Positions 24,001 to 27,000 of a DNA stretch of 64,000 nucleotides are shown here, in pieces (the first letter of the stretch is position 1; each line of letters begins with the position of its first letter). The stretch is taken from NCBI RefSeq assembly GCF_988243305.1, contig NZ_OZ547137.1. One strand, written 5' to 3'. This DNA is from a plasmid. A program made the position numbers.

Positions 24001-27000
24001 CCTGTACCGGTTCGCTGCCCGCTGTCGGTTATCAGGATCTGTACGTTATGACGTGCGGCACCGTCCAGCAGGGTTAACGTCTCTTTCAGGGAGAGTTTTT
24101 CGCCCTGGTCAACGATAACGGTACTGCCCGGAGTGAAGGTCATGCCATCCTGCAGCTGACGACGTCCGGTTATCAGTTCACCGGACAGCCGTTCATCCTG
24201 CTTCAGGTTCATCTGCGAGCGACGGTCAGCAGCGATAATCTGCACCTCCCGCCCCTGCTCCCGGGCCATCATGACCAGTTCAGCCACCCGCTCACGCTGC
24301 CCGGCTGCACCGCCCTGCCCGGACACAATGGCCAGCGACGGGCGATCCTGTGCCAGAACACTGACGGCATCGCTGTAACCGGCCGTCCGGGGGACACTTT
24401 TCTCCGGATGTACGGTCACCCGGTTCTGTTTCATGATGTCACGACTGAGTGCCCGGACTGACAGCTCATCGAGCACATGAATCCCGGACGTGAACAGCCC
24501 CTTCTCACGATCGAGGGGGATAAGCTGCTCACGGCTGATGGCCTCATCGATACCGGCGCGTGCCCGTTCAATCACACCATTTTCCGGCGGCAGTATGCCG
24601 ACCGTCCTGGCCAGCACGTCCGTGTACGTGAACTGCACTTTTCGTTCACTTAATCCGGCAATGGCCTGTGTCACCGCCTGCTGCACATCCGGCCCGTCCT
24701 GTAAAACTGGCCCGGGCGCCTGCGTGCGGATCTCCGCACGCTGATCCGCCGCGTCACGATATGCCCGGATGTCGAACCCGGTTTCCTTCAGCGTCTTCAT
24801 CCATTCAGCCATTCTGATTTCCGGATCGACGTGCTGTTTGGATTTACGCGTATCCAGTGCCGCCACATCCCGGGATTTCAGTGAGGCCCCTTCCCCGACG
24901 GCCTCTCTGATAGCCTGTGAACGACTGGAAAAGGCCTCCACCGGTACGCCCGGCATCTCCCACATACCGTGCTTACCGACCACTTCGGTTTCATAACCCA
25001 GCGCCTCAACGCGCTGACGTAACTCACTCTGATATATTTTCCCGAACGCAATCCGGTTCGCGAGCACGTTCTCGGAAAATCCGGTTTTCCCCACTTTGTC
25101 ACTGCTCAGTGTCTTCCACTCGCCGTTATGCTGCGTGACATTAGCCACCACCACATGCGTGTGTAACTGTGGGTCCTGATCGCGACTGGTGTCATGGTTA
25201 AACAGTGCCATCACCAGATTACCGGTCAGCACCGTTTCTGACTGTCCGTCCGTCATCACCCGTGTGGAAGCCAGCGCCTCCACCTGACGGACAGCAAAAT
25301 CCACGGCCTGGTTATGTGCATCAATAAGACGTTTATCCCCCCCGAGCATGGCCATCATGGAGACACTTTTGGGGGCGGAGAAGGTCAGGTCGTAGCCGGG
25401 ACGATGCTTATTACTGCCATCCTGCATGCGGCTTAAATCCGCCCCGTCCGGCAGCCTGCCCTCCAGAAGACGGGTAAAAACATCCTTATCGACGCTGCCC
25501 TGCAGCCCAAGCTGTTCAGCCCCCTGACCGGCCCAGCGTTCTCCCATGCTGCCCAGCACATAGTAATTATCCTTGTCGGTGTAATAGTTTCCGGCACTGC
25601 CTGCCGATTTAACAACGCTGAAACTCAACATCAGAAATCATCTCCCGGCTCAACATCCTCCCCGCGCTCCCGGTGCACATTAATGTTCACCTCTTCACGA
25701 CGCTGCATATGCTGCTGGATGTCCGGATGATTTTCCTGTTGCCATGCCTCATAAGCGGCCATATCCACCACTTCACCGGATTCACTGATCCCGGGTGGCA
25801 GTTGCTGTTCCATCTCTTCTTCCGGTTTCATTTTCAGCTCCTGCTCGATCCCCCCTGCCGGAACACTTACACCTGCATCTGACTTCTTATCATTGATGAC
25901 AGAAGACACTGGCTGTTGTGGCTGTTGTGGCTGTTGTGGCTGTTGTGGCTGTTGTGGCTGTTGTGGCTGTTCAGCCTGAGTCACGCCTTCTCCGGAGGCA
26001 ACCTCCGGTTCGAAGAGGCTGGCCATCTGGCGACCTTCTGCTTCCCTTGCAGCAAGTACGGCACTCAGACGGTTCTCCATTTCCGGGTTGATGTCACGAG
26101 GAATAAACTCCGGAGCGACCTTCGGTCGTGCCTGATATTTCAGAGAGAGTTTTACTGCCGGATACGGTCCGGGCAGAGTGACATAGCAGGTCAGATCCGG
26201 CAGAGACTGAATGTCGGAATAACTGACCAGCGTCTGACGCTCCATATCCTTACCGGTCGATACCCCGTCACGTACCGGGTCAGCACCGTAGGAATACTGC
26301 TCGCTGGCTTTCAGGTGCTCTTTCTCACCAATCTCACCGGCAGCGAACTCTGCAATCTTATGGCTCGGGGAACGGAAAAAAGCACGGGTGTTCATGACGT
26401 CAAACAGCGTGGCCGCCGCTTTCTCACCGTAGATATCTTCCAGCTGGGCATAGGACTGGATACCAAACACATAACAGCCACCGAACTTACGGGCTTCCGG
26501 CAGAATCTCCACCAGATCCGGCAGTTTGTGTAACGTGGGTAACTCATCACAGAAAAACCACACACGACGGTTACGGTTTTCTCCCATTGCCAGCAGACCA
26601 CGAATGGCAATGGACAGCCACATGGAGATCACAGGCTTCAGGGAGGCATGGGTGTCGGCGTTCGACGAAATAAACAGCCAGCCGTTTTTCTGATCTTCCC
26701 GGACACCACGCATCCAGTCACGGATGGTGAAGGGCTCACCGTTATGCTCAATCCCCTGCAGGTAACGGATGGCTTTCACGTAGTTGGTCAGCACAGCACG
26801 GATGGAAATCGCCGTTTTCTCAATTTTCTCTTCCACCAGGTTGGCCGCCGGTGAATTACGCAGGAAGGTACGCAGTTTTTCAATTTTGATGGAAAGCAGT
26901 GTGTCCACCAGTTTGCTGTAGCTGCGGTTGGGGTCATTACGCATCAGGTACGCCGCTTCCGCAAAAATGGTACGTCCTGAACCCTGCCAGAACGGGTCCT

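Follow-up and report, generated by a model that had tools for sequence, protein, structure and literature searches.

A known hypervariable QQP repeat in the C-terminal extension of an F-like TraD, probably a flexible spacer of near-neutral length

A stretch of 64,000 nucleotides of plasmid DNA (hereafter the window) carries, close to the 3′ end of a gene for a type IV coupling protein, a perfect tandem repeat with a 9-bp unit. This raises the questions of what kind of element the array is, whether its copy number differs among related plasmids, and whether such differences would matter for the encoded protein. The gene is traD, as the original prediction had it: its product combines the Pfam domains TraD_N (PF12615; residues 32-128, E = 7.8e-35) and TrwB_AAD_bind (PF10412; residues 172-561, E = 4e-117), it lies upstream of traI and abuts it, and its homologues carry the traD annotation. 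The TrwB crystal structures 1e9r/1gl6 match residues 161-573 (E = 3.7e-47), with homology stopping at about residue 573. The region from traP to traD-traI is collinear with that of the pAA-ST131 plasmid (IncFII/FIB, E. coli; 98.7% identity over 24.8 kb). With both domains, an acidic-tailed extension, a location between traT and traI, and traM present on the same DNA, the protein is an F-like TraD of the VirD4/TrwB family. The relevant features are the following:

25631..27820, minus strand: traD, type IV coupling protein, 729 aa (open reading frame, Pfam, TrwB structure match)
25634..26101, minus strand: C-terminal extension of TraD, residues 574-729 (conserved outside the QQP tract and, in F-type alleles, a PDV indel)
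25634..25657, minus strand: last eight residues of TraD, DVEPGDDF, equivalent to Asp710-Phe717 of F TraD (alignment, literature)
25910..25971, minus strand: perfect 9-bp tandem repeat, 6.9 copies, unit CAACAGCCA encoding Gln-Gln-Pro (Tandem Repeats Finder, sequence, shuffle control)

The extension, which Lang et al. 2011 (PMC3245843) termed an 'unstructured extension', is rich in E, Q and P, and residues 574-729 yielded no match in Pfam or the PDB. Outside the QQP tract, it is nearly invariant in the allele alignment, with hardly any amino-acid substitutions nearby, and its last 22 residues are identical to those of F TraD. An AlphaFold2 model based on a 12-sequence alignment was poor everywhere (mean pLDDT 37, pTM 0.27), so that its low confidence in the region of the tract says nothing about disorder.

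Tandem Repeats Finder reports bases 25910..25971 as one array with a period of 9, 6.9 copies, 100% matches, no indels and a score of 124, one of two arrays in the window that score at least 50. Within traD, perfect identity at a lag of 9 runs over 53 nt, compared with a longest run of 12 (mean 5.8) in 1000 codon shuffles, and across the whole window no run at periods of 4 to 30 is longer than 53 nt. On the coding strand, the array reads CAGCCA followed by six copies of CAACAGCCA (bases 25910-25969), encoding QP(QQP)6, which corresponds to TraD residues 618-637 of 729 and leaves 92 residues to the C-terminus. The tract thus measures 60 nt, 20 residues or 6.67 units. The original prediction of a perfect 9-bp repeat encoding a (QPQ)n tract is borne out by the 100% matches and by the reading frame of traD, the peptide unit being writable as QPQ or QQP. 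Its coordinates (25912-25965) fall within the array, which runs a few bases further, and its count of six units holds for the complete ones, to which a partial seventh has to be added.

An array of this kind could in principle be an artefact of sequencing or assembly, or could belong to a feature other than traD, and short-read assemblies do break at the repeat. However, a 481-bp query centred on it, searched against PLSDB and complete E. coli genomes, recovered the same array and flanks from 3979 plasmid records and from 2799 of the 5426 genomes, with F and R100 among the carriers. This recurrence across independent records effectively refutes an artefact. As for another feature, a mechanical list of open reading frames includes a 205-aa antisense frame (25916..26533, plus strand, MWLLWLL...) that starts inside the repeat and reads it as (WLL)n. 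It lies opposite the conserved traD frame, whereas the repeat is in frame in full-length traD, and we rejected it as a mechanical by-product of a repeat opposite traD. No Rfam family was found at the repeat, and scans for promoters and terminators gave only chance-level results there. Taken as one alternative, an artefact or a non-traD feature is thus extremely improbable.

The assembly breaks left a visible trace in protein databases. Hundreds of entries annotated as 'TraD, partial', 92-99 aa long and including clusters of 797 and 438 members, start exactly one residue past the QQP tract, and short-read assemblies therefore evidently break at this site. Some copy numbers in databases may accordingly contain assembly errors. 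One database protein (P0016) contains frame-shifted repeat units that are typical of read errors. When the 168-aa C-terminal region was searched against a large protein database, most matches were fragments and full-length proteins were few, and the search is informative for distant homologues and assembly breaks only.

The repeat is a feature already known from the literature. Lang et al. 2011 (Mol Microbiol 82:1071, PMC3245843, Fig. 8) described length variation of a 'QQP motif' in F-like TraD proteins, giving lengths of five residues for F and of 23 for R1, and the array of the window is this variable region: QQP repeats lie upstream of the TraM-interaction domain, in register with F and R100, and differ in length among plasmids. 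The protein, the position, the unit, the flanks (VTQAE-[QP(QQP)n]-VSS) and the TraM-binding tail are the same, and copy number alone differs, with 20 residues in the window as opposed to the published 5 in F and 23 in R1 and to our own measurements of 29 for R100 and, elsewhere, of up to 80. The closer of two reference proteins, TraD of R100 (NR1; WP_000009331.1, 738 aa), shares 723 identical residues with the window protein and has six mismatches. R100 also resembles the window in its gene order (traT, a small ORF, traD, traI) and in its CCA-flavoured unit, but it carries 9.67 instead of 6.67 units (nine gap columns), and a split traI is a feature of the window. TraD of F (WP_000009350.1, 717 aa) has the same architecture and the same last 22 residues, but differs by 13 substitutions and 18 gap columns. 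It has 1.67 units, uses the proline codon CCG and contains an extra PDV; in F, moreover, vapBC lies between traD and traI, unlike in the window.

Copy number is not fixed across F-like traD alleles. Among 170 sampled rows that cover the whole query, the matched stretch takes 23 different lengths between 436 and 661 bp, each separated from the 481 bp of the window by a multiple of 9 bp. The tally excludes rows H16, H34 and H37. Of these, H34 spans query positions 1-480 only, and the other two are off by 1 nt; since the tract of H37 is in register (H37 is unannotated there), its 1-nt indel must lie elsewhere. Tract lengths read directly from the sequence were 15 (F and two others), 33, 42, 60, 69, 78, 87 (R100), 96, 195, 213 and 240 nt, the 60-nt form being common to the window, the pAA-ST131 plasmid and pA-10383. 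The original prediction that F has fewer units is thus correct: its tract is QPQQP, 15 nt, both in the sequence and in Lang et al. 2011. Every full-length allele examined stays in frame. In three F-type traD alleles, that of F among them, an extra PDV is located about 15 codons upstream of the tract, near window position 26015 (LFEPDVPEVV vs LFE---PEVA), and it looks like a local duplication. Since this separate 9-bp indel lies in the flanks, spans read from BLAST come out 9 bp too long for the tract in the F lineage.

Length differences are also present among very close relatives. The flanks of 60 sampled alleles match those of the window at 99.3% identity or more. In this group, the array has 0 to 15 additional units, with a mode of +4, and the 20-residue allele of the window is the shortest among these closest sampled, R100-like alleles. 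Two Shigella flexneri 1b plasmids from Ontario, pA6817 and pA-10383 (NZ_CP130062.1 and NZ_CP130065.1; 10.67 and 6.67 units), differ over 20,481 bp by nothing but 36 bp, or four units, of the array. Both comparisons support the original prediction that the repeat can expand or contract by slippage. At the other extreme, the longest tract (240 nt, 26.67 perfect units, 80 residues; NZ_CP123317.1) is found in a traD whose 5′ end was removed by an IS66-family insertion, and the upper end of the length range may therefore not be functional. On plasmids that were typed as conjugative, the tracts of full-length traD genes range from 5 to 71 residues. In distant TraD homologues from Salmonella, Enterobacter and Serratia, the position of the tract is occupied by a short Q/P seed or by another low-complexity stretch.

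The arrays are internally homogeneous, with either CCA or CCG as the proline codon, and each flavour occurs in short and long forms. Among 18 tracts, a single interrupted unit was found (CAGCCAGAA, Gln to Glu), in addition to one array that ends in a CCG-flavoured partial unit. Judged from the sequences, this homogeneity fits a fast turnover through duplication and deletion of units. The region has the sequence properties of a slipped-strand hot spot, with perfect head-to-tail repeats and whole-unit polymorphism between otherwise identical sequences. Given that the extension hardly varies elsewhere and that its last 22 residues match F, the variability is a local mutational property rather than general decay.

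We consider it probable that the known QQP repeat is a hypervariable array in the extension linking the ATPase body to the TraM-binding tail, that it changes by slippage or recombination of units, and that it forms a flexible spacer of near-neutral length. The repeat (CAA-CAG-CCA)n would sit between the TrwB-like ATPase body and the tail, where slipped-strand mispairing or unequal recombination, either of which fits the comparative data, may change the number of units. Each event would add or remove QQP tripeptides, and the tract would act as a Gln/Pro spacer of variable length. As the unit comprises three codons, the frame is kept and no on/off switch results. Tract length appears to be broadly tolerated and close to neutral, in view of the very different lengths carried by plasmids whose conjugation is known or predicted (5 residues in F, 23 in R1, 29 in R100).

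Two known systems help to place such a spacer. Phase-variable contingency loci, for example in Haemophilus and Neisseria genes, contain tetranucleotide or homopolymer repeats. The traD array resembles them as a slippage-prone perfect coding repeat with copy-number polymorphism among close relatives, but its 9-bp unit keeps the frame, so that protein length changes and expression is not switched, and traD is not a contingency locus in this sense. TonB contains a proline-rich spacer segment, (Glu-Pro)n/(Lys-Pro)n. By analogy, both segments may be low-complexity, proline-containing linkers between modules whose exact length is largely dispensable, although TonB and TraD are unrelated in protein and sequence and the parallel is one of role only.

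The partner of the TraD tail is encoded elsewhere in the window:

51406..51789, minus strand: traM, 127 aa, intact, relaxosome protein docked by the TraD tail (open reading frame, translation)

This gene was named by position and length against the R100 annotation, and it adjoins the Rfam matches to FinP and the traJ 5′ UTR at 51215-51324. The interaction of the TraD C-terminal tail with TraM, named in the original prediction, is established in the literature: the tetramerisation domain of TraM binds the Asp710-Phe717 peptide of F TraD (Wong 2011; Bragagnolo 2020). The repeat itself can be dismissed as a TraM-binding element, the binding element being the last eight residues, 84 residues downstream of the tract.

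The original prediction held that copy number may affect transfer efficiency. With the tract between the ATPase body and this tail, the number of QQP units could determine how far the tether from the membrane-bound TraD hexamer to the TraM-coated oriT reaches, or how flexible it is, and thereby modulate transfer efficiency or substrate specificity under selection. The contact made by one tail is weak and is believed to rely on avidity and on a flexible tail (Wong 2011), the C-terminal extension reportedly contributes to specificity and efficiency (Sastre 1998, as presented in Lang et al. 2011), and copy number varies widely. Nevertheless, we regard such tuning by length as unlikely. The classical conjugative plasmids F, R1 and R100 and the full-length genes cover the broad range of lengths given above, and the difference of four units, and of nothing else, between nearly identical plasmids looks like drift. 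In the searchable literature, where only Lang et al. 2011 discuss the motif, we found no published experiment that links QQP copy number to a phenotype.

A different kind of selection was considered by Lang et al. 2011 (PMC3245843), who suggested that differences in the TraD C-terminus may underlie plasmid-specific phenotypes and phage-driven diversification. According to this proposal, variation of the extension, including QQP length, would be selected through altered susceptibility to male-specific RNA phages such as R17. Infection by R17 requires TraD, F and R1 differ in their need for TraI and the relaxosome, and selection for phage resistance was proposed to diversify TraD (Lang et al. 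2011). However, the idea was a hypothesis in the discussion of that study, there described as 'under investigation', and whole-unit changes in a homogeneous array, with hardly any substitutions nearby, bear the signature of mutation bias. We therefore judge phage-driven selection to be a highly improbable cause of the length variation.

The proposed spacer of near-neutral length also has to be seen in the context of the plasmid on which it resides. Directly downstream of traD, the following element interrupts traI, truncating its 1756-residue product after about residue 1418 and leaving gene fragments at 21379-25631 and about 8992-10017:

10018..21378, no strand assigned: resistance transposon of the Tn3 family (Tn1721/TnAs1-like) in traI, about 11.4 kb (blastn against the pAA-ST131 plasmid, inverted repeats, target duplication)

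The transposon is bounded by 38-bp inverted repeats (GGGGAGCCCGCAGAATTCGGAAAAAATCGTACGCTAAG) and flanked by the duplicated target (C)TTGAA. Its cargo comprises tnpA, tnpR, a class 1 integron (intI1, dfrA, aadA), an IS6-family transposase gene and sul2, as well as an IS110-like fragment and a fragment of a methyl-accepting chemotaxis protein (MCP) gene. Similar transposons occur in other plasmids, the top PLSDB matches covering the transposon only, and the junction between traI and the transposon is absent from the 5426 complete E. coli genomes. To judge from the interrupted gene, self-transfer is probably impaired and the plasmid is probably not self-transmissible. With traI split, the length of the TraD tail is unlikely to be under selection in this plasmid now.

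Elsewhere in the window, Rfam reports the following RNA families, all at gathering level:

5518-5608: CopA
7186-7370: AS-pc02
15904-15985: attI/aminoglycoside leader
22706-22782: AS-traI
32084-32169: AS-traG
51215-51324: FinP with the traJ 5′ UTR
55173-55349: sok

These matches represent the usual IncFII RNA complement, and none is close to the repeat. A second perfect repeat, AGCAGT x 5.8, is located at 60152-60186 in the leading region (Tandem Repeats Finder score 70). It is associated with no convincing ORF, and mechanical ORFs read it as (TA)n or poly-Leu.

For the study of IncF plasmids, the traD repeat is a rapidly changing marker with which backbones that are otherwise identical can be told apart, as the Shigella pair, identical over 20.5 kb except for four units, demonstrates. 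Length differences at the repeat should be counted in traD comparisons as repeat noise and not as divergence of alleles. It is also conceivable, if a rather long shot, that the QQP array is an evolvable tuning element, in which frequent in-frame slippage yields plasmid subpopulations with different reach of the TraD tether. If so, changes in copy number would shift how efficient self-transfer is balanced against the mobilisation of foreign relaxosomes and against susceptibility to RNA phages that depend on TraD, and the array would be a graded, reversible counterpart of phase variation in the conjugation machine. IncF plasmids rank among the main carriers of antibiotic resistance, and a tuning of relaxosome docking or phage entry by copy number would therefore matter: the efficiency of their conjugation could drift rapidly and reversibly.
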